This document shows positions 50,995-60,021 of a DNA stretch of 64,000 bases, one piece after another; within the stretch, counting starts at the first letter, position 1, and each line of letters begins with the position of its first letter. The notes beneath the pieces were generated by a model. It had not been told where the DNA came from. It saw nothing but the letters and a program-made list of their open reading frames with translations, and made no database searches. Both the position numbers and the translations under genes were made by a program. The DNA is from a virus. The stretch lies in the IMG/VR virus record IMGVR_UViG_3300028883_000002; one strand, 5' to 3'.

Positions 50995-51149
50995 CAGATA
51001 ATCTCCCGGTTCAGCTAGATAAAACTACCTGCCCCAACTGCGGCAGAAAACTTAAGGACATAGAAACCAAAGAGGTAGACAAATATTTTGTTTTAGCAAG
51101 ATGCGATAGTTGTTTCTGTGACTTCGTAATTCCGAAAGGCTTACTATGA
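50991..51149 (+). CDS. zinc-ribbon protein, 52 aa (CPNCG...CDSC)
   Basis: Read by eye; ATGA overlaps at both ends. Confidence 0.55.
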   Translation: MTDNLPVQLDKTTCPNCGRKLKDIETKEVDKYFVLARCDSCFCDFVIPKGLL

Positions 51150-53725
51150 AAATTCTCCATGTAGGACAAGCGGCAAGCCTAGCCCAAAAGTATGGCGGAG
51201 CAGAATACACAGATGCTATGATAATGAAAGCTGGAGTAAAGAGAGGGCATCGTGTCCTTTCGGTAAACCATCGTGGAAAAATGACAGACTGGAATACAGG
51301 TAGCACCCAAAAGATAAACCTGTGGAGGATAATTAGTGCTGCTGAAGTTTGTGATGTTGCGATAGTATGCAATATAGAATGGTTTCTTCCAGAAATAATT
51401 GAGAGGTTTGTTGATACTCTAGTTGGTAGAATTCCGTTTGTTTATCATCCACACCACTTTACTCCATGTATGTATACAGGACTGCCGGATACAACAGAAG
51501 GTCTATGTGACAAAATGTGCAAAGGAAAATATTCGTGCCTAGAAGAGTATAGAGGCCTTTTCTATAAGTACATTCTAATGAATGCATCGAAAGTAATTTG
51601 CTTAAGCCCTCTGCATAGAGAAATGTTCATCAAAGCATATGGCGACGAAATAGACTATGGACACTTTGAGTGCTGCCCCCCTGTAATAGGAGAGGAATTT
51701 TGTAATGAAAAACTGGATAGAATACTAGATACCGTTACTGTAGGTGGTGGAACATTTCAAAAAGGCTTCTTGAATCATATAACATGGGCAAAAGAGAATC
51801 CAGACAGAACTCTTAGCGTGTATGGTAAGGTTCAAAAAATCGGAAAACTTCCAGACAACATTGAGTTGTGCGGAACAACTTCTAACGCTTCTCTACCAAG
51901 CATATTAAACATGTATAGGTCTTTCCTATATCTGCCCCAATGGGAAGAACCATACGGGAGAGTGGTGGCAGAAGCCGCTTTGTGCGGCTGCGAAATGATA
52001 GTAGATAAAGATAAAACAGGGGCATATTCCTATTCTACCCCACCAAAAATGCATCAAATTGACCCAGAAACGGGCAATGGATTTTGGAACCACCTAGAAG
52101 CTATAGCTAATACTCGACTTCCAAAACTGTCGTTCGAAGAAGTTGCAAAGAGTAGCAACATAGAATTTAGCAAAGATAGCATAGATTCATGCAAGGTTGG
52201 GATAGTAACCGCTATGTACAACCAAGCTGAATATACCATTAAGTTTCTGGAAAGTCTTGAAAAAAGTAGCATACCACCAAATACTTTTGTTGTAATAGTT
52301 GATGATAATTCCGACCCAGAAGAACTAGAAAAACTGTGCAGCAGCAAAACATACCAAGAAACCAAGCTAAACGTAGAAATACTAAAGCACACCGAAAACG
52401 AAAGCTGCACTAAATCATGGAATGATGGCATCAATATAGTATTCGAAGTTATGCCAGATGTAGAATATATAGTAATAACCAATAATGATGTTATCTTTCC
52501 AAAGGCATGGTTGTACTATTTAGTAAGGGACCAAAGGATATTTGGTGCTGCAATTGTGGGGCCACTGTCAAACCAGCCGGGTTCAAGGCCTTGCCAAGAA
52601 GTGGGCTTGGTGCTTTCAAATTACAAAGAAAGCGATAAGCCAGAAAATATCGAAGAGACACAAGCTAAACTTGCAGCTTTTAATCTACTGCCAAGAAATG
52701 TATCCGCTGTTAACGGATTTTGCATGTTATTTGAAACTAGTGCCTTAAAAAGGCTACAGAAAAACCCCGGCGAATATTTTGATAATAGTATGGTTACCTA
52801 TGGTAGCGATGATGATATCAACAACAGGGCATTTTTAGCAAGAATGGACATAAGGATAAGTAAAACATCTTTTGTATTTCACTACAAAGCTGTTACTGTT
52901 GAGGATAACCCGCTAGAACACCCCGGCTTATTAAGGATTGGAAAAGATATGAGCAAAACAGTAAGGGCAAAAGGAGTGGTGGATAGCTTTAATACCCTAG
53001 TTAAAACCCTTGATAATAACAAGAGAGTGTTCTTTACTAGATTTGGGGATGCCGATATTCTCATGATGTCCGGCAAACAAATGAAGTCTAGCGGTAATCA
53101 AACAACTAACACACCGGACCTGACAGCCGAAATGAAGGAAGCATTTCAAATAGATGACCCAAGATTTCTTAAGGCTACTAGCACATCATATCCAAAAGAG
53201 CCGGGAATGCAGGACGGCCTGTTTGCGCCTTTTCCTTACAATGCAGAACTAGCTGAAATAGTAAAGAGGTATAACACTTCGGACCAAACGCTATTCGAAA
53301 ACCCTGTAATGTTTCACTATCTCGCCGTGTTTTCGCCAGAGGTATTTCTTACATTTCTAGATAAGTACATTAGGCCCAAGAGAAAACTATTCGTGGGGGC
53401 TTGTTCAAAAGAGAACATGGAAAAAATGTTTGGCAAGATAGACTTCTATGTTAACACTCCCTTGCAAAACTCATATGCAACTATGCACCAATGGTATCCT
53501 CAAGTTCTTGATACAGTTGTTAATGATAAAATTGAATTGGTTATCTTAGCAAGCGGTCAAAGTAGCAGAGCATTACAAGCAAGATTGTGGAACATAGCAG
53601 AAACGTATGCTCTTGATTTTCATAGTATTGACATAGGAAGTGTAGTAGATGCAGTAGAGGGTAATTCTACAAGGACTTGGATTAGACTCGCAGGAGATAA
53701 AGTAAGGAGGTTGTTTGATGGTTAA
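51146..53725 (+). CDS. 859-aa multidomain glycosyltransferase (GT4-like + GT2 + GT-D/DUF1792-like)
   Basis: YGRVVAEAALCGCEMIV (GT-B), VGIVTAMYNQ...VIVDDNSD (GT2), FTRFGDADILMM (GT-D-like). Confidence 0.75.
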   Translation: MKILHVGQAASLAQKYGGAEYTDAMIMKAGVKRGHRVLSVNHRGKMTDWNTGSTQKINLWRIISAAEVCDVAIVCNIEWFLPEIIERFVDTLVGRIPFVYHPHHFTPCMYTGLPDTTEGLCDKMCKGKYSCLEEYRGLFYKYILMNASKVICLSPLHREMFIKAYGDEIDYGHFECCPPVIGEEFCNEKLDRILDTVTVGGGTFQKGFLNHITWAKENPDRTLSVYGKVQKIGKLPDNIELCGTTSNASLPSILNMYRSFLYLPQWEEPYGRVVAEAALCGCEMIVDKDKTGAYSYSTPPKMHQIDPETGNGFWNHLEAIANTRLPKLSFEEVAKSSNIEFSKDSIDSCKVGIVTAMYNQAEYTIKFLESLEKSSIPPNTFVVIVDDNSDPEELEKLCSSKTYQETKLNVEILKHTENESCTKSWNDGINIVFEVMPDVEYIVITNNDVIFPKAWLYYLVRDQRIFGAAIVGPLSNQPGSRPCQEVGLVLSNYKESDKPENIEETQAKLAAFNLLPRNVSAVNGFCMLFETSALKRLQKNPGEYFDNSMVTYGSDDDINNRAFLARMDIRISKTSFVFHYKAVTVEDNPLEHPGLLRIGKDMSKTVRAKGVVDSFNTLVKTLDNNKRVFFTRFGDADILMMSGKQMKSSGNQTTNTPDLTAEMKEAFQIDDPRFLKATSTSYPKEPGMQDGLFAPFPYNAELAEIVKRYNTSDQTLFENPVMFHYLAVFSPEVFLTFLDKYIRPKRKLFVGACSKENMEKMFGKIDFYVNTPLQNSYATMHQWYPQVLDTVVNDKIELVILASGQSSRALQARLWNIAETYALDFHSIDIGSVVDAVEGNSTRTWIRLAGDKVRRLFDG

Positions 53726-54002
53726 GACTAGAGCGTGTGACAAATGCGGGGCAAAAGATAAAGAGCTTAATTGGGTGCATTCCAAATGGCTATGTGCAGA
53801 TTGCGCAGAGAGCAAGGAAGAAACACCTGGCGCAGTTGAAGATTTGAATGAGCTTGACAGGATTATTGAAGAGGGAGAAAAAGAAAATGGGGGAACAGAA
53901 AGTAACAGCGGTAATTCTGAACTGGAAGAGGCCACAGAACATACCGAAGATAATAGAAAGCCTTTTGCCCCATTCCTTCATAGACGAGATAGTGATTCAT
54001 GA
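53718..54002 (+). CDS. zinc-ribbon protein with acidic tail
   Basis: CDKCG...CADC; GGAGG RBS. The 3' end overlaps the next gene by 116 nt. Confidence 0.5.
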   Translation: MVKTRACDKCGAKDKELNWVHSKWLCADCAESKEETPGAVEDLNELDRIIEEGEKENGGTESNSGNSELEEATEHTEDNRKPFAPFLHRRDSDS

Positions 54003-54498
54003 TAATTCAAAGGGCAACAATATAATTAATTACGGTAGATATCTTCACGGAACCCACGACCTGATATATACCCAAGATGATGATTGCATTGTTCATGGCA
54101 TTGAAAACCTATATGCCTCTTTTGTTACAGCGCCAGATAGAATTTCATATGGTGGAACGGAAGGATTACATAACGTAGACCAGCAAAATATTCGCGGTTC
54201 CGCCAAGATGTGTATGGCAGGATGGGGAAGTATGTTCAGTCGCTCTTGGATTTCTGTGTTAGATAAATATATAGAGAGATATGGTATGGACACTTGTTTC
54301 TTTAGGGAGACAGACAGAATTTTTTCTCTATTGCTAAACAAACACCATAATCTTGTTAAAACAGTTAGGATAGAACATCTTGAAGGGGCAGTCGACAAAA
54401 ATGCCCTCGCACTTGAGGCAGACCATTGGAAATCGAAAGCCAAGGCTATTGACCGAGCACTTGGAATTTTGAAGGAGGAAGGAACGTGGTCCTCTTAG
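53887..54498 (+). CDS. GT2-like glycosyltransferase
   Basis: VTAVILNWKRPQN...IVIHDNS...QDDDC. Confidence 0.65.
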   Translation: MGEQKVTAVILNWKRPQNIPKIIESLLPHSFIDEIVIHDNSKGNNIINYGRYLHGTHDLIYTQDDDCIVHGIENLYASFVTAPDRISYGGTEGLHNVDQQNIRGSAKMCMAGWGSMFSRSWISVLDKYIERYGMDTCFFRETDRIFSLLLNKHHNLVKTVRIEHLEGAVDKNALALEADHWKSKAKAIDRALGILKEEGTWSS

Positions 54499-55043
54499 CT
54501 CCTCATAACGATGATGAGGTTCTGTTTGCTTCTGGTATATTAGAAGAGTTTAGGCCAACGGTTGTAATTGTGACGGATGCAATTAGACATTCTGAAAGAT
54601 TAGGCAATCCAGATTTCTGGCTTACCAGAAGAATGGAAAGCTGCAAGGCTGTTCAGATGTACGACTTGCCAATCATCTTCCTTGGTATTCCAGATACAGA
54701 ACTCAATGCAACTAGATTCTGGAACAGAATGAGATTGAGGGTTCCTTGGGGAACGCTAATTGCACCGGATTGGTATTCTGCTAATGAAGACCATAATCTA
54801 ATAGGGGAAACGATTTACAAAAACTGTCCGCTGTCTTTCTTTTATCCTACCTATACGAAAGAACTAGAAACTAAGCCAACGCTTAAAGTAGAAATAGAAT
54901 ATAAGCCTGAAGGGGAACATCGCCAAAAGAAGATTCAAGCTCTTGAGTGTTATGAAACTCAATGGAGAATGAACAAAGCACATTTCGAAGCAGCATTGAA
55001 ACAATCTGAGTATCTGTGCAGGGCTGATATCAAAGATGAATGA
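54486..55043 (+). CDS. PIG-L/LmbE-family deacetylase
   Basis: LAPHNDDEVLF signature; GTG start behind AAGGAGG. Confidence 0.7.
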   Translation: MVLLAPHNDDEVLFASGILEEFRPTVVIVTDAIRHSERLGNPDFWLTRRMESCKAVQMYDLPIIFLGIPDTELNATRFWNRMRLRVPWGTLIAPDWYSANEDHNLIGETIYKNCPLSFFYPTYTKELETKPTLKVEIEYKPEGEHRQKKIQALECYETQWRMNKAHFEAALKQSEYLCRADIKDE

Positions 55044-55614
55044 GAAGGATAAAGCGCACAGAATAGAACTTCTGAATACCTTTCCAAAAAACTCAATTGG
55101 AGCAGAGATAGGTGTGTGGAAAGGTGAAATGTCGGGTTTAATTCTTGAAGTTGTACAGCCAAATATGTTGTACTTAATTGATGTATGGGAATTCGACTTA
55201 CCGAAAGGGTTTGGTCAATTGCCAGAAGGATATGGAGCCAAGAACGCAAAGAAAAACCAAAAAGCAATTGATGAAATCTATATACGAGTATGCTCAAAGT
55301 TTCTCGATAAAAATAATGTAACCATAACCAAAGGATTCTCAAAAGATGTAGCAAAAACACTTGAGGATGAATCTCTGGATTGGGTTTACATAGATGCTAA
55401 CCACGAATATTTTGGCGTGTTAGAAGACTTGACAGAATACTATCCCAAAGTAAAACCGGGAGGAATTGTTTCGGGCCATGATTGGACCTATCCAATAAAA
55501 GAAAAGAGAAATCCTGTACAAGATGCTATAAGAGATTTTTGGTCTTATACAGATGTAAACTTAAGTCAACCAGAACTATTCGGTACAAACTGGAAAATGA
55601 TAAAGGAGAAATAA
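55036..55614 (+). CDS. class I SAM-dependent methyltransferase (Methyltransf_24/TylF-like)
   Basis: GAEIGVWKGEMS...DWVYIDANHEY...PGGIVSGHDW. Confidence 0.7.
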   Translation: MNEKDKAHRIELLNTFPKNSIGAEIGVWKGEMSGLILEVVQPNMLYLIDVWEFDLPKGFGQLPEGYGAKNAKKNQKAIDEIYIRVCSKFLDKNNVTITKGFSKDVAKTLEDESLDWVYIDANHEYFGVLEDLTEYYPKVKPGGIVSGHDWTYPIKEKRNPVQDAIRDFWSYTDVNLSQPELFGTNWKMIKEK

Positions 55615-55850
55615 TGGATGTACTGAAAGAGCTAGGAGCAGAAGACAAGTGGGAAGCGGGAATCCTGTTCATAGACAAGGACGAATCAGTTAAGCCAATT
55701 CATAACAATAAAACCGTTCACTTAGCAATTGTAGATTTCTATGGCAGACCTTCTTGGGTTAAGCTAAGTGATGGCGACCTTATCATAGTTGTTAGGAAAG
55801 GAGATTACAATCTTGACTCCATACGAGCAAGCCAAACGAAATCTGATTGA
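55614..55850 (+). CDS. hypothetical protein
   Basis: TAATG overlap; GGAGAA RBS. Confidence 0.55.
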   Translation: MDVLKELGAEDKWEAGILFIDKDESVKPIHNNKTVHLAIVDFYGRPSWVKLSDGDLIIVVRKGDYNLDSIRASQTKSD

Positions 55851-56379
55851 TTTTTCATCAATCCTAGCTACTCATAAAGTTCCATTCTGCCTGATGGATG
55901 GAACCCTATTGGGGGCATGCAGAGAGAAGGACTTCATAAAGGGTGACGAGAAAGATATTGATACTGCCATTCTAGATTATCATTATGATGTATTTGTCGC
56001 CCAGCTTCTGCCCAAGCTGAGAGAGATTGGTTTTAATGATATTAGGATATACTCAGTAGACGGAACGGTTGAAGGAGTGGCAATGTTCCGTGGTAACAAC
56101 CACATTGATGTAATGCGAATACATATCAAAAACGATTATGCATACAATCTTGCCAAAAGCTTCGGAAGATTTAGGCAACCACATATTGCTTTCAAATATC
56201 CCGTTGAGTGCTTTAGGGAATTTGACGAGATTGAATTCTTAGGAGCTACATACAATACTCCGCATGACCCAGAGAGATATTTAGAAGTAAGGTATGCAGA
56301 TTGGAAAACTCCAGTTGCCCAGAAGGACTACGACTACTTTGACCAAAAACAGGTTCCCTGTCTAAGCTTGGAGTGGTAA
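55813..56379 (+). CDS. licD: LicD-family phosphotransferase (TTG start, uncertain)
   Basis: [29 protein letters not shown] matches the LicD signature. Confidence 0.75.
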
Positions 56380-56380
56380 A

Positions 56381-57736
56381 ATGTCGCACGACTCTACGGT
56401 ATACGTCGGAATGGCAGCAGATGTTCTTCATGCAGGACACATAAACATCTTGCGAACAGCAGCGGGATACGGAAGAATAATTGTGGGGCTGTTAAGTGAT
56501 GAAGCTATCGCAAGTTACAAACGCATCCCCTTGATGAATTTTCATCAAAGGCAGGAAGTGGTTAGCAACATTTCAGGCGTGAATGAAGTCATTATTCAGA
56601 AAACACTAGACTATACAGACAACCTGAAGCGGTTAAAACCCGATTATGTTGTTCATGGTGACGATTGGAAAGATGGACCACAGAAGGGAACAAGAGAAAA
56701 AGTAATAGAGTGCCTCAGAGAGTGGGGCGGTAAGTTAATTGAAGTTCCGTATACCAAGGGAATTTCTTCAACTGAGGTAATCAATAGAATCAGAGGAGAA
56801 GGAATATCTCCTGACAAACGCAGGGAATTACTCAGAGATATAATGAGCAAGAAACCTCTCTGTAGATTCATCGAAGCACACAATGGACTAAGTGCTTTGG
56901 TAGCAGAGAATGCTGAATATACAGACGGAGAAATTCGCAGGGAGTTTGATGGTATCTGGGTTGGGAGTTTAGCTCTCTCCACTTCAAAAGGCAAGCCAGA
57001 TACAGGAGTAGTTGACTTCTCTGAGCGATACAAGGCAATCGAAGAAATCATGGAGGTTACTACGAAGCCGATAATCGTAGACGGAGATTCTGGCGGTTCG
57101 TATGACAACTTTGGACACAAGGTCAGAACGCTTGAGCGGCTTGGTGTATCGGGTATCATAATAGAGGACAAGATAGGCGTTAAAAGGAACTCGCTTTTCC
57201 AAGAGGGGGAAGCTGTTCCTCAAACGCAAGACACGATAGAAAACTTCTCAAAGAAAATTCGCGCAGGAGTTCAGGCTCTACTGGACCGCAGGAGCTTCAT
57301 GATAATCGCTAGAATAGAATCTCTTGTGCTAGGCGGTACGGTAGAAGACGCCCTAGAAAGAGCGCAATGGTATTTGAACTCTGGCGCAAGTGCGATAATG
57401 ATACACAGTAAAGATAGGGAAATCGGGAAGTTACTAGATTTTTGCGAAAAATACAATGAAAAAATCTACCTATTGGGCGGACCTTATGAAACTCCGCAGA
57501 AAACAAGAATGCCGCTCGTCATGGTTCCTACTGCTTATGACCATATCAGAGAAGAGGAACTAAAACGATGGGGAGCTAATGTTGTTATATATGCAAACCA
57601 ACTAGTACGAAGTGCTTATCCTGCAATGCTAAGAACAGCAAATCAGATACTAAGGGACCAACAGGCAGAAAGAGCCTGTAACGAAAACTGTATGTCAGTA
57701 AAAGAGTTGCTCACTTTAATACCGGAGGACTATTAA
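56381..57736 (+). CDS. pepM: cytidylyltransferase-phosphoenolpyruvate mutase fusion (PntC-PepM type)
   Basis: N-terminal [11 protein letters not shown] (HxGH). C-terminal [16 protein letters not shown] and the PepM-diagnostic [10 protein letters not shown]. Confidence 0.9.
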
Positions 57737-58824
57737 TGTACACAAAGGTTCCACAGTTGGAAAAGGGGTATGCAGATTGGAAAGATGCTCTTTGCGACAT
57801 ATGGAGAAGCCACTCCTGCTTCCAAAGTCCGCTGTATGTGGTTTCCGAAGGTAGCATGAAGAGACTCAAGCTTGGGCCGTTTGCAAGCGAGAACTGGATT
57901 TGGGTTGACTCAAGCGAAAGGGACATGAGGAAGGTATCAAAATTCTATCTTAAAAGAACGCTCGACTTAGATTTTGATACCGTAATTGCAATAGGTGGCG
58001 GATTTACACTAGACGTAGCTAAGTTGATTCTTGCCAGTAAGTGTTTTGATACCTGTTCGGCAGAAGTTATCAAAGACAGAGAAGATATAATCTACAGATA
58101 TTGCCCGTCAATATTCATTCCCACTACTTGTGGGTCTGGTAGTGAAGCTACTCCATATGCAACTGTGTGGGATTTACACAACAAGAGGAAGTTCTCTATT
58201 AGAAGCGAAGATTTAGTTCCAAACTATGCGATACTTGATTCGCATCTTCTTTTGTCTATGCCCCAACAGGTAGCGCACAGTTCAATGATGGATGCAATAG
58301 CACATTGTATTGACTCGTTCTTGAGCGTTAAAAGAACGGAGCAATCCCAGCTATTCGCAAGAGAAGCTCTAAGCGCAATTGTTCCAAAGCTTAATGCAAA
58401 CGACCATACCTACAGAGATGTTCTAGACCTGATGGTAGGAGCATATTACGCAGGAAGAGCAATTGCAATCAGCGAGACTTCTTTGTGCCATGCACTTAGT
58501 TATCCGTTAACACTTCATTATGGGATACCGCACGGTATCGCATGTGGAATGATGTTAGCTACGGCGATAGATTGCCATGCTGCTCTCGATAAATATCTGG
58601 AAAGAATCGTATCTAGAGGAGAATTGAGTTCTAGAATTCTGCTACATTTTGAGGTAATGTTGAAGAAGTGGAATGCATTCCTCAGGGACGAAAATCCAGA
58701 TATTAATTTCCTAGCTAATTGCGCCAGTAATGAGAGGATGAGTAACTACAGCTATATTGACCCAAGAAATGAAAGCGAAGTTTTTGAGGCGGCAAAGGAC
58801 TTTTACAAAAGGGTCTTACGATGA
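57736..58824 (+). CDS. iron-containing alcohol dehydrogenase (candidate phosphonoacetaldehyde reductase)
   Basis: IGGGFTLDVAK, TTCGSGSEATP, MMDAIAHC, CHALSYPLTLHYGIPHG. Confidence 0.8.
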   Translation: MYTKVPQLEKGYADWKDALCDIWRSHSCFQSPLYVVSEGSMKRLKLGPFASENWIWVDSSERDMRKVSKFYLKRTLDLDFDTVIAIGGGFTLDVAKLILASKCFDTCSAEVIKDREDIIYRYCPSIFIPTTCGSGSEATPYATVWDLHNKRKFSIRSEDLVPNYAILDSHLLLSMPQQVAHSSMMDAIAHCIDSFLSVKRTEQSQLFAREALSAIVPKLNANDHTYRDVLDLMVGAYYAGRAIAISETSLCHALSYPLTLHYGIPHGIACGMMLATAIDCHAALDKYLERIVSRGELSSRILLHFEVMLKKWNAFLRDENPDINFLANCASNERMSNYSYIDPRNESEVFEAAKDFYKRVLR

Positions 58825-59225
58825 GAGTTAAAGACCTGTACCATCACGCAAGATATCAATTGGGAATCTCGTTTTTCACAGGCGTACCAGACAGTTTACT
58901 CTCTCCCTTTCTGAAAGAATTAGACAAGGAGATAAGAGAAGGAGGTACATCAACAAAGCACATAATTGCCGCTCACGAATCTCAAGCGGTAGGTATTGCA
59001 GTTGGAGCAATGTTGGCTGGCAGTAACGCGGCTGTATATACCCAGAATTCGGGAGTAGGGAATTTGGTCAATCCGATAGCTAGTCTGTGTTTGCCGTATA
59101 ACTTGCAACCTTGGATAATCATAGGCCACAGGGAAGGGCTACCCCAGCACAGGGTAATGGCAAAGATAGATGATGATATCATGCAGCTTCTAGGTTATAA
59201 AAAGTACCTACTGGTGAAGGAGTAG
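58821..59225 (+). CDS. ppd: phosphonopyruvate decarboxylase, N-terminal (pyrimidine-binding) subunit
   Basis: FFTGVPDSLL...AAHESQAVGIAVGA... ThDP-enzyme N-domain pattern. It lies next to pepM. Confidence 0.75.
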   Translation: MRVKDLYHHARYQLGISFFTGVPDSLLSPFLKELDKEIREGGTSTKHIIAAHESQAVGIAVGAMLAGSNAAVYTQNSGVGNLVNPIASLCLPYNLQPWIIIGHREGLPQHRVMAKIDDDIMQLLGYKKYLLVKE

Positions 59226-59228
59226 AAA

Positions 59229-59723
59229 ATGCCTATGTCGCTAGATGTTGCGCTTTCGTTTATTTTCCTGAAACACATGAAAGAGAGCATAAAGGACGAC
59301 ATAATCTATGTGGTCAGCACAGGCTATCTTTCAAGAGCGGTATACCGAATGCATCCCAAGTGGAAAAACGTTTTCTACATGCAAGGAAGTATGGGACTTG
59401 CTCCTGCCATTGGGCTGGGTATGGCGCTAAAAACAAAGAAGAAGGTTGTTGTCATAACGGGCGATGCAGCACTTCTGATGCACTTGGGAATTACCCATAC
59501 GATTAGGGATGCCGACCTAGACAACCTTTTTGTGTACGTCATTAAAAACGGTTGCCATGAATCTACTGGTGGGCAACCGTGTTCCGAAGTTAAACTGCAT
59601 TATCCCGGTGTTACTGAAGTGCTGAAAGTTGACCCCTTAATTCCACCTAGGATTGATATGAGCTTCAATAAGATTACTGAAAACGTTAAGGATTCGCTAA
59701 ATGCGCTTAAACAAAAAGCTTAA
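59229..59723 (+). CDS. ppd: phosphonopyruvate decarboxylase, C-terminal (diphosphate-binding) subunit
   Basis: GSMGLAPAIGLG...ITGDAALLMHLG...NGCHESTGGQ ThDP motif. Confidence 0.75.
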   Translation: MPMSLDVALSFIFLKHMKESIKDDIIYVVSTGYLSRAVYRMHPKWKNVFYMQGSMGLAPAIGLGMALKTKKKVVVITGDAALLMHLGITHTIRDADLDNLFVYVIKNGCHESTGGQPCSEVKLHYPGVTEVLKVDPLIPPRIDMSFNKITENVKDSLNALKQKA

Positions 59724-60021
59724 GTATCTGTGGTTACCGATTAGGAAAAAGGTTCACCAACAGATAGAACACAAGAAGATGGAAAAGCTAGGACTCACAG
59801 AGAAGTTCCTAGCTATTTCAGCCGTGGTCCAATTCCTAACTACAGAACTGGACCAGATAGAACTAAGAGAGAGCGAATACAAGAAGCTCTTCTTTCATGG
59901 CTGTAGGTACATACTCAGGAACTCAGATATCAATATTCCTAAAGTACCTAAGTTCCTGAGGGGGTTTGTTATTAACCGCATAATCAATGCGGTTTATGAC
60001 TTTACCAAAAAGAACCAATAG
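59701..60021 (+). CDS. hypothetical protein
   Basis: ORF track. This is the last + strand gene. Confidence 0.45.
   Translation: MRLNKKLKYLWLPIRKKVHQQIEHKKMEKLGLTEKFLAISAVVQFLTTELDQIELRESEYKKLFFHGCRYILRNSDINIPKVPKFLRGFVINRIINAVYDFTKKNQ

Follow-up and report, generated by a model that had tools for sequence, protein, structure and literature searches.

A tailed-phage operon predicted to make 2-hydroxyethylphosphonate and to pass it, in CMP-activated form, to a glycan

Surface glycans that carry phosphonate head groups resist phosphatases, and are recognized differently by phages, grazers and immune systems. We analyzed a stretch of 64,000 nucleotides of viral DNA (IMG/VR record IMGVR_UViG_3300028883_000002; the whole stretch is called the window below) with five adjacent genes that appear to encode a route to 2-hydroxyethylphosphonate (HEP) together with a transferase of the LicD family. 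The HEP branch accounts for 8.5% of ppm gene neighborhoods, and 2-aminoethylphosphonate (AEP) is the head group in 56% (PMC8942020).

The closest characterized chemistry is the early fosfomycin pathway of Streptomyces wedmorensis, with the enzymes Fom1 (a fusion of a cytidylyltransferase (CyTase) and a phosphoenolpyruvate (PEP) mutase), Fom2 (a phosphonopyruvate decarboxylase, Ppd) and FomC (an iron-type alcohol dehydrogenase, Fe-ADH) (PMC6697681). The window shares this enzyme set, the N-terminal fusion of a PF01467 domain to the PEP mutase (PepM) and the order of reactions, which runs from PEP to phosphonopyruvate, phosphonoacetaldehyde, HEP and finally HEP joined to cytidine monophosphate (CMP-HEP). 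In the fosfomycin pathway, however, CMP-HEP is transient, being C-methylated by Fom3 and then hydrolyzed. Fom3, FomD and Fom4 are all missing from the window, which has LicD and glycosyltransferases in their place, and this exchange indicates attachment to a glycan. The split Ppd and the phage carrier are further differences.

The Pnt pathway, which puts 2-AEP on cell-surface glycans, resembles the window in that a phosphonate is made, activated with CMP and passed to a LicD-type phosphotransferase in a glycan locus (Rice et al. 2019, PMC6697681). By contrast, it uses an AEP transaminase (AEPT) and mostly a LicC-type (PF12804) PntC specific for AEP, while the window has an Fe-ADH, a PF01467 CyTase with a lysine pattern discussed below, and no AEPT.

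Cellular neighborhoods of pepM, aepY and phpC, including some with LicD-type genes, have been noted (PMC9381506). Such cassettes of CyTase-PepM, Ppd and PhpC have the same three core functions as the window, often with an adjoining LicD, and the proteins are about 50-58% (PepM fusion) and ~30-40% (Fe-ADH) identical. In all 75 cellular loci with a Ppd that we sampled, however, this is a single protein of ~375 amino acids (aa) and the genes run PepM-Ppd-ADH. In the window they run PepM-ADH-PpdN-PpdC, the Ppd is trimmed and has two subunits, LicD has 196 aa and the backbone is that of a phage.

A compact HEP cassette in IMG/VR contigs, largely of marine type, is also phage-borne, and has a CyTase-PepM and a split Ppd (~130 + 155 aa) to which the window's Ppd halves score best. 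Its Fe-ADH has only ~260 aa, its order is PepM-PpdN-PpdC-ADH, and in at least one contig (L010) a TagF-like gene (PF04464) is present and not LicD. A search of five viral contigs with the compact cassette detected no match to DNA polymerase III alpha (PolIII-alpha).

The predicted product belongs to a chemically proven class. Phosphonoglycans bearing HEP occur in Stackebrandtia nassauensis and Glycomyces (Yu et al. 2014, as cited in PMC8942020 and PMC13576164), and polysaccharides of marine dissolved organic matter also contain HEP esters. These are actinomycete and environmental materials, for which the cited accounts report no phage link. An inventory from 2022 contains no Ppm in RefSeq viruses and reports none from 364 huge-phage genomes; its sole viral case is one contig of a nucleocytoplasmic large DNA virus encoding AEP (PMC8942020). 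None of the papers in the library that we searched describes a phosphonate pathway for a tailed phage. Because of its phage carrier, split and trimmed Ppd, gene order and compact LicD, the operon is a departure from the known cassettes. Its chemistry is not new: it is the CMP-HEP logic characterized for Fom1, Fom2 and FomC, joined to a LicD transferase.

The phage to which the window belongs is large, tailed and uncultured. Among the proteins encoded in the window are a DnaB helicase, a PolIII-alpha-type polymerase, NrdD, a primase, an Amidase_3 endolysin and a tail-fiber protein. The polymerase is nearest (33-36% identity) to human-fecal phage contigs and a Moorella phage. The plus strand at positions 55789-59723 holds five tightly packed, intact genes, one of which encodes two domains:

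55789..56379, + strand: compact LicD-family phosphotransferase, 196 aa, TTG start (PF04991, fold match)
56381..56800, + strand: N-terminal CyTase domain of the fusion protein, aa 1-140; predicted reaction CTP (cytidine triphosphate) + 2-HEP to CMP-HEP (PF01467, Fom1 homology)
56816..57736, + strand: PEP mutase domain of the fusion protein, aa 146-451; PEP to phosphonopyruvate (TIGR02320)
57736..58824, + strand: PhpC/FomC-type Fe/Zn alcohol dehydrogenase; predicted reaction phosphonoacetaldehyde to 2-HEP (PF00465, PF25137, TIGR03405)
58821..59225, + strand: N-terminal (PYR-domain) subunit of phosphonopyruvate decarboxylase, PpdN (TIGR03297)
59229..59723, + strand: C-terminal subunit of phosphonopyruvate decarboxylase, PpdC, with the PP domain that binds thiamine pyrophosphate (TPP) (TIGR03297)

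The gap between LicD and the fusion gene is 1 nt, the fusion stop and the Fe-ADH start overlap by 1 nt, Fe-ADH and PpdN overlap by 4 nt (ATGA), and the PpdN-PpdC junction reads TAG-AAA-ATG, with a GAAGGAG Shine-Dalgarno sequence just before the PpdC ATG. Given these junctions, the genes from LicD to PpdC form one translationally coupled operon. The original prediction, which was made from the sequence alone, matches these open reading frames (ORFs) exactly in position and content, including the placement of the Fe-ADH between PepM and a Ppd split in two.

In the proposed mechanism, the PEP mutase would convert PEP to phosphonopyruvate, and the two-subunit TPP-dependent decarboxylase would convert this to phosphonoacetaldehyde, drawing an unfavorable equilibrium forward. 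The PhpC/FomC-type metal-dependent dehydrogenase would then reduce phosphonoacetaldehyde to HEP, which the CyTase domain fused to the mutase would join with CTP to give CMP-HEP, as Fom1 does. Finally, the compact LicD enzyme would move the HEP-phosphonyl group from CMP-HEP to a glycan hydroxyl. The acceptor glycan would probably be built or trimmed by the upstream glycosyltransferases, deacetylase-like protein and methyltransferase. From homology and gene context, we give a probability of roughly 0.7 to this reading, in which the phage operon makes HEP, activates it as CMP-HEP and has LicD pass HEP to a glycan. The production of HEP and CMP-HEP is likely, and the transfer to a glycan by LicD is somewhat less so. 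We infer the substrate specificities, the donor and acceptor of LicD and the purpose of the tagged glycan, which could belong to the host envelope, the virion or another target.

The main competitor as a head group is AEP. It was predicted earlier that the cluster would lead to HEP, partly on the ground that no aminotransferase is present, and this absence extends to the whole 64-kb window. As AEPT seeds for unfiltered phmmer and tblastn searches of six frames, we took two proteins of related loci whose scores exceed the TIGR03301 cut-off. The best match in the window had only E = 0.15, and Pfam and PHROG scans of the large window ORFs detected no aminotransferase. A related module occurs in a complete phage genome (L026, G409; 77,054 bp, direct terminal repeats, CheckV 100%), which encodes a short LicD, a stand-alone PepM, a fused Ppd, an Fe-ADH, a separate CyTase and an FkbM-type methyltransferase. 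No class-V aminotransferase was found in that complete genome.

The end product could nonetheless be 2-AEP if a transaminase came from the host or from elsewhere in the phage, in which case the CyTase would make CMP-AEP for LicD, and the Fe-ADH would have a side or salvage role. Fusions of PF01467 to PepM do occur with AEPT (L099, L102, L127 and six Clostridia loci), no phosphonate head group is more frequent than AEP, at the 56% given above, and roughly half of the phage contig lies outside the window. This alternative must be set against the window without an aminotransferase, the translational coupling of the Fe-ADH between PepM and Ppd, and the complete G409 genome, which has the same module and no AEPT. 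It also has to be set against the residues Lys47, Ser45 and Ser130 of the CyTase, a pattern missing in all ten AEPT-linked enzymes. Overall, we consider an AEP product improbable.

The gene neighborhoods of related enzymes are mostly of the Fe-ADH type. Our cellular sample consisted of the 80 closest CyTase-PepM loci, from many bacterial and archaeal phyla. An Fe-ADH lies beside Ppd in 68 of these, 8 are cut by a contig end, 12 have LicD and only 2 have an AEPT. Most cellular cassettes end at the Fe-ADH, followed by a transferase. Among IMG/VR contigs with a full-length fusion, 23 of 27 have a split Ppd and an Fe-ADH; their Ppd frames overlap. In a tree, the window fusion is on a long branch inside a group with 98% support that also contains two large viral contigs and Marinimicrobia. 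Every member of this group whose neighborhood does not run into a contig end is linked to an Fe-ADH.

The assignment of the fusion protein itself is clear. Pfam places CTP_transf_like at residues 14-136 and PEP_mutase at residues 152-424. The mutase scores 325.8 bits to the NCBIfam model TIGR02320, above the equivalog cut-off of 319.55, matches PF13714 with E 1.8e-48, and matches the PEP mutases 1m1b and 5unc in PDB with E 1e-35 to 1e-30. The Ppm-specific motif EDKxxxxxNS is kept, reading [10 protein letters not shown]. The CyTase domain matches PF01467 (E 1.4e-15) with its HxGH motif in the form LHAGH at residues 16-20, and is ~60% identical (79/131 residues) to the Fom1 CyTase (PDB 5x3d_A, E 1.8e-50). 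Fom1 is cited as cytidylylating HEP to give CMP-HEP (Cho et al. 2017, as cited in PMC6697681). No sequence among 5.8 billion proteins is more than 57% identical to the window fusion, and neither blastn against phages nor a single-protein viral scan detected close relatives of the locus. An exact 40-mer of the window had no match in IMG/VR or JGI metagenomes.

To characterize the CyTase further, we grouped the enzymes by gene neighbor (Fe-ADH versus AEPT), adding 25 Clostridia loci to enlarge the AEPT-linked set. In the first comparison, three positions (45, 47 and 130) separate the two groups, and the window has the Fe-ADH-linked pattern, with S45, K47 and S130. After enlargement, the clearest position is Lys47, within the motif IASYKR. 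Of the 105 Fe-ADH-linked enzymes, 104 have Lys at this position, as does Fom1, but none of the 10 AEPT-linked enzymes does; they have W, F, T or N there. Together with the homology to Fom1, this pattern supports the prediction that the fused CyTase would activate HEP rather than AEP. The dehydrogenase type, the transaminase-free window and these two features of the CyTase all support HEP as the product, as had been predicted.

The Lys47 signature offers a testable way to tell HEP from AEP cassettes in annotation. If it is true, a single active-site position (Lys47 versus W/F/T/N) would predict HEP or AEP specificity across the PF01467 phosphonate cytidylyltransferases.

One Clostridia genome (L167, G324:C49:25269-43681) has two tandem phosphonate clusters, each with its own residue type. 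The first is Fe-ADH-linked, and has a triple-fusion PepM of 668 aa with a Lys-type CyTase, while the second is AEPT-linked and has an RYN-type CyTase. An extra N-terminal domain of ~235 aa precedes the CyTase in the Clostridia PepM proteins of 668-671 aa (L164, L167, L168, L170, L173, L176, L177, L179 and L180), nearly all of which are Fe-ADH-linked.

The Fe-ADH matches PF00465 and PF25137, and among NCBIfam families it scores highest to TIGR03405 (Phn_Fe-ADH), with 166 bits compared to 102 bits for the runner-up family. Against the Fe-ADHs of PepM-Ppd cassettes it reaches 130-160 bits, and against the best generic solved Fe-ADH 107 bits. The metal ligands D186, H190, H252 and H266 and the nucleotide motif GGG..D..AK are kept. 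Synteny with pepM and ppd has been used as a criterion for phosphonoacetaldehyde reductases (Lockwood et al. 2022), and the window Fe-ADH is located between PepM and Ppd. Residues K152, T248, Y256 and R334 are invariant across 60 cassette homologs. They match the spacing of the HEP-binding residues Lys157, Thr256, Tyr264 and Arg349 in an AlphaFold 3 model of P. fungorum PhpC (PMC13576164), with the mapping made by spacing alone and the Tyr also found in generic Fe-ADHs. Tyr256 was accordingly rejected as a PhpC-specific marker.

The decarboxylase is encoded in two parts, for both of which TIGR03297 is the best family. PpdN scores 95 bits over profile positions 1-122, and PpdC scores 95.7 bits over positions 178-293. 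The second-best family is sulfopyruvate decarboxylase, alpha (60.5 bits) and beta (86.1 bits), respectively. Each half is under the single-polypeptide TIGR03297 cut-off of 312.5, and profile positions 123-177 and the C-terminal tail are absent. Compared to a single-chain Ppd of ~375 aa, the pair lacks a middle segment (approximately residues 139-195) and the tail. PpdN keeps GVPDS, the catalytic Glu (HE) and QNSGxGN, and PpdC keeps the TPP motif GDA...KN and HxSxGGQ.

PpdN and PpdC are in the same frame, with one TAG between them. TAG closes 13 of the 39 window genes, and is therefore an ordinary stop here. We rejected both TAG recoding and a nonsense mutation as explanations of the split, in view of this ordinary use, of PpdC's own strong ribosome-binding site and of the persistence of the split in viral homologs with other frame arrangements. 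PpdN matches best to split Ppd subunits encoded by viral contigs (up to 137 bits), and there are 662 protein clusters of similar stand-alone beta subunits of ~152 aa, chiefly of marine metagenomic origin. By contrast, Ppd is fused in all 75 Ppd-bearing cellular loci that we sampled.

These sequence changes bear on the possibility that the module is a decaying or non-functional passenger, or that the Fe-ADH is catabolic and converts HEP to phosphonoacetaldehyde, so that no phosphonoglycan would result. PhpC-type enzymes are catabolic in other gene contexts (PMC13576164), the window Fe-ADH departs from near-invariant cassette residues at S90F (GGGS motif to GGG-F), E193D and W196L (the last two also occur in some viral homologs), and Ppd lacks the segments described above. 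However, all five ORFs are open and coupled with their catalytic residues kept, and profile scans detected PepM and Ppd but not the catabolic partners PhnX, PhnY and PhnA. The trimmed Ppd is kept across many viral contigs and the 662 protein clusters, which argues for selection. A passenger or catabolic role is therefore very improbable in our view.

The LicD assignment made in the original prediction is backed by structure modeling. The protein scores 31 bits to PF04991 (gathering score 22.6), matches the NCBIfam Mf1 cholinephosphotransferase with E 2.4e-10, and has the motif GTLLGA...DEKDID. An AlphaFold model built with seven sequences is confident (predicted local distance difference test 93.7), and its best PDB fold is FKRP (E 8e-8, template modeling score 0.6), which suggests that the assignment is correct. 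FKRP is an enzyme of the LicD superfamily that moves ribitol phosphate from cytidine diphosphate (CDP)-ribitol. The short LicD subfamily was found in only three genomic contexts (the window, L026 and L031), each beside HEP genes, and in the common viral cassette the neighboring transferase, at least in L010, is TagF-like. These observations fit a CMP-HEP donor used by CDP-alcohol-type phosphotransferases.

Upstream of the operon are a methyltransferase gene and genes for probable glycan enzymes:

51146..55043, + strand: glycan context, with an 859-aa multi-domain glycosyltransferase, a GT-A-like ORF of 216 aa and a PIG-L-like deacetylase (PF00535 + PF00534, PIG-L)
55036..55614, + strand: class I S-adenosylmethionine (SAM) methyltransferase, Methyltransf_24/TylF-like (PF13578 E 4e-17, PF05711 E 1e-6)

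The glycosyltransferase matches both PF00535 and PF00534, and the deacetylase scores 26.5 bits, slightly under the PIG-L cut-off. The proteins of this region probably build or trim the acceptor glycan. The methyltransferase may O-methylate the sugar or the head group.

This methyltransferase, upstream of the PepM fusion and two genes away from it, raises the alternative that HEP and CMP-HEP are only intermediates, and that a derivative is attached to the glycan. Methylphosphonate, hydroxymethylphosphonate or a methoxyethyl form could arise through the methyltransferase or an enzyme encoded elsewhere. HEP is a known branch point for methylphosphonate, hydroxymethylphosphonate, fosfomycin and phosphinothricin (PMC9381506, PMC13576164), and the original prediction allowed for "a derivative". 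However, every ORF of at least 400 aa in the window is assigned to another family, so no unassigned enzyme of the size of the cupin dioxygenases MpnS or HEPD (~440 aa) is left there; the sole neighbor without an assignment is an ORF of 106 aa. Moreover, the methyltransferase is a class I TylF-like O-methyltransferase and not of the Fom3 radical-SAM/cobalamin type, and the cellular cassettes mostly pass from the Fe-ADH directly to a transferase. Attachment of a derivative is thus unlikely. We also considered the methyltransferase as a DhpI-like phosphonate O-methyltransferase, but rejected this candidate, as no solved relative of the protein is detectable by sequence.

Several observations weigh against the reading that CMP-HEP is made and its HEP passed to a glycan by LicD. 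Beneath the Lys47 rule are only 3-4 independent evolutionary changes, and the association cannot reach significance in a tree-aware test. The ten AEPT-linked enzymes come from no more than 3-4 independent lineages, which leaves the association statistically insecure; the naive Fisher p = 1.5e-13 is inflated by relatedness. The sole exception to the rule is L181 (G295:C1:70655-83938), where an RYN-type CyTase-PepM adjoins an Fe-ADH and two LicD genes, with no Ppd detected nearby. Kinship with Fom1 alone is not diagnostic of HEP and is insufficient as proof of specificity, since an AEPT-linked CyTase scores 168 bits to 5x3d, nearly as high as the 175 bits of the window CyTase. The 166 bits of the Fe-ADH are under the TIGR03405 equivalog cut-off of 423.7, although three Fe-ADHs of cellular PepM-Ppd cassettes are also under it (232-303 bits), and the model is therefore narrow. 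In LicD, only the N-terminal quarter (48 residues; profile positions 4-49 of 227) aligns to PF04991. Finally, the remaining ~58 kb of the phage contig, or the host, could encode a transaminase or an HEP-modifying enzyme.

Beyond the window, the compact cassette occurs in 23 viral contigs (among L001-L027 and L037), some of which are 95-189 kb long. It consists of CyTase-PepM, a PpdN of ~129 aa, a PpdC of ~155 aa and an Fe-ADH of ~260 aa without the first ~65 profile positions. Directly upstream of one viral CyTase-PepM is a gene for a TagF-like CDP-glycerol glycerophosphotransferase family protein (PF04464; L010:6947-7993), which suggests that CMP-HEP can feed TagF-type transferases too. In the cultured Vibrio phage Va2 (L126; MW073017, 102.7-117.2 kb), a PEP mutase is annotated and, like a TPP-binding Ppd-like protein, is encoded among ribonucleotide reductase genes. 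Within 7 kb, there is no Fe-ADH or AEPT.

We see an even chance that several unrelated tailed-phage lineages, including this one, make CMP-HEP during infection, and put a hydrolysis-resistant C-P head group on a phage-built glycan, be it on the virion, on the envelope of the host or elsewhere. Infected cells would in that case be an unrecognized source of HEP-bearing polysaccharide, and such phages could be one source of the HEP esters in environmental polysaccharide. A phage with a whole HEP route and a transferase would be evidence that viruses use C-P compounds to remodel glycan chemistry. The operon is also small and self-contained, and thus suited to heterologous production of CMP-HEP.

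We now note some additional properties of the region. The 216-aa ORF (53848-54498) has no family match, but its layout is GT-A-like, with VTAVILNW as an early beta strand and with the motif QDDDC; from these features, it is probably a further glycosyltransferase of the island. The genes for the methyltransferase and LicD share a reading frame, and the 58 codons between them (55615-55788) contain no ATG, GTG or TTG. The TTG start of LicD has no clear Shine-Dalgarno sequence, and a database gene call is 8 residues shorter. A lysine-rich ORF of 106 aa (59701-60021) overlaps the end of PpdC and is convergent to the endolysin gene; it has no family match and no homolog in any fetched locus. Part of PpdC is identical to a 114-aa database call on a contig of 62,879 bp, and the PepM fusion is recorded on a contig of 121,748 bp. 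The phage may thus have been assembled more than once.

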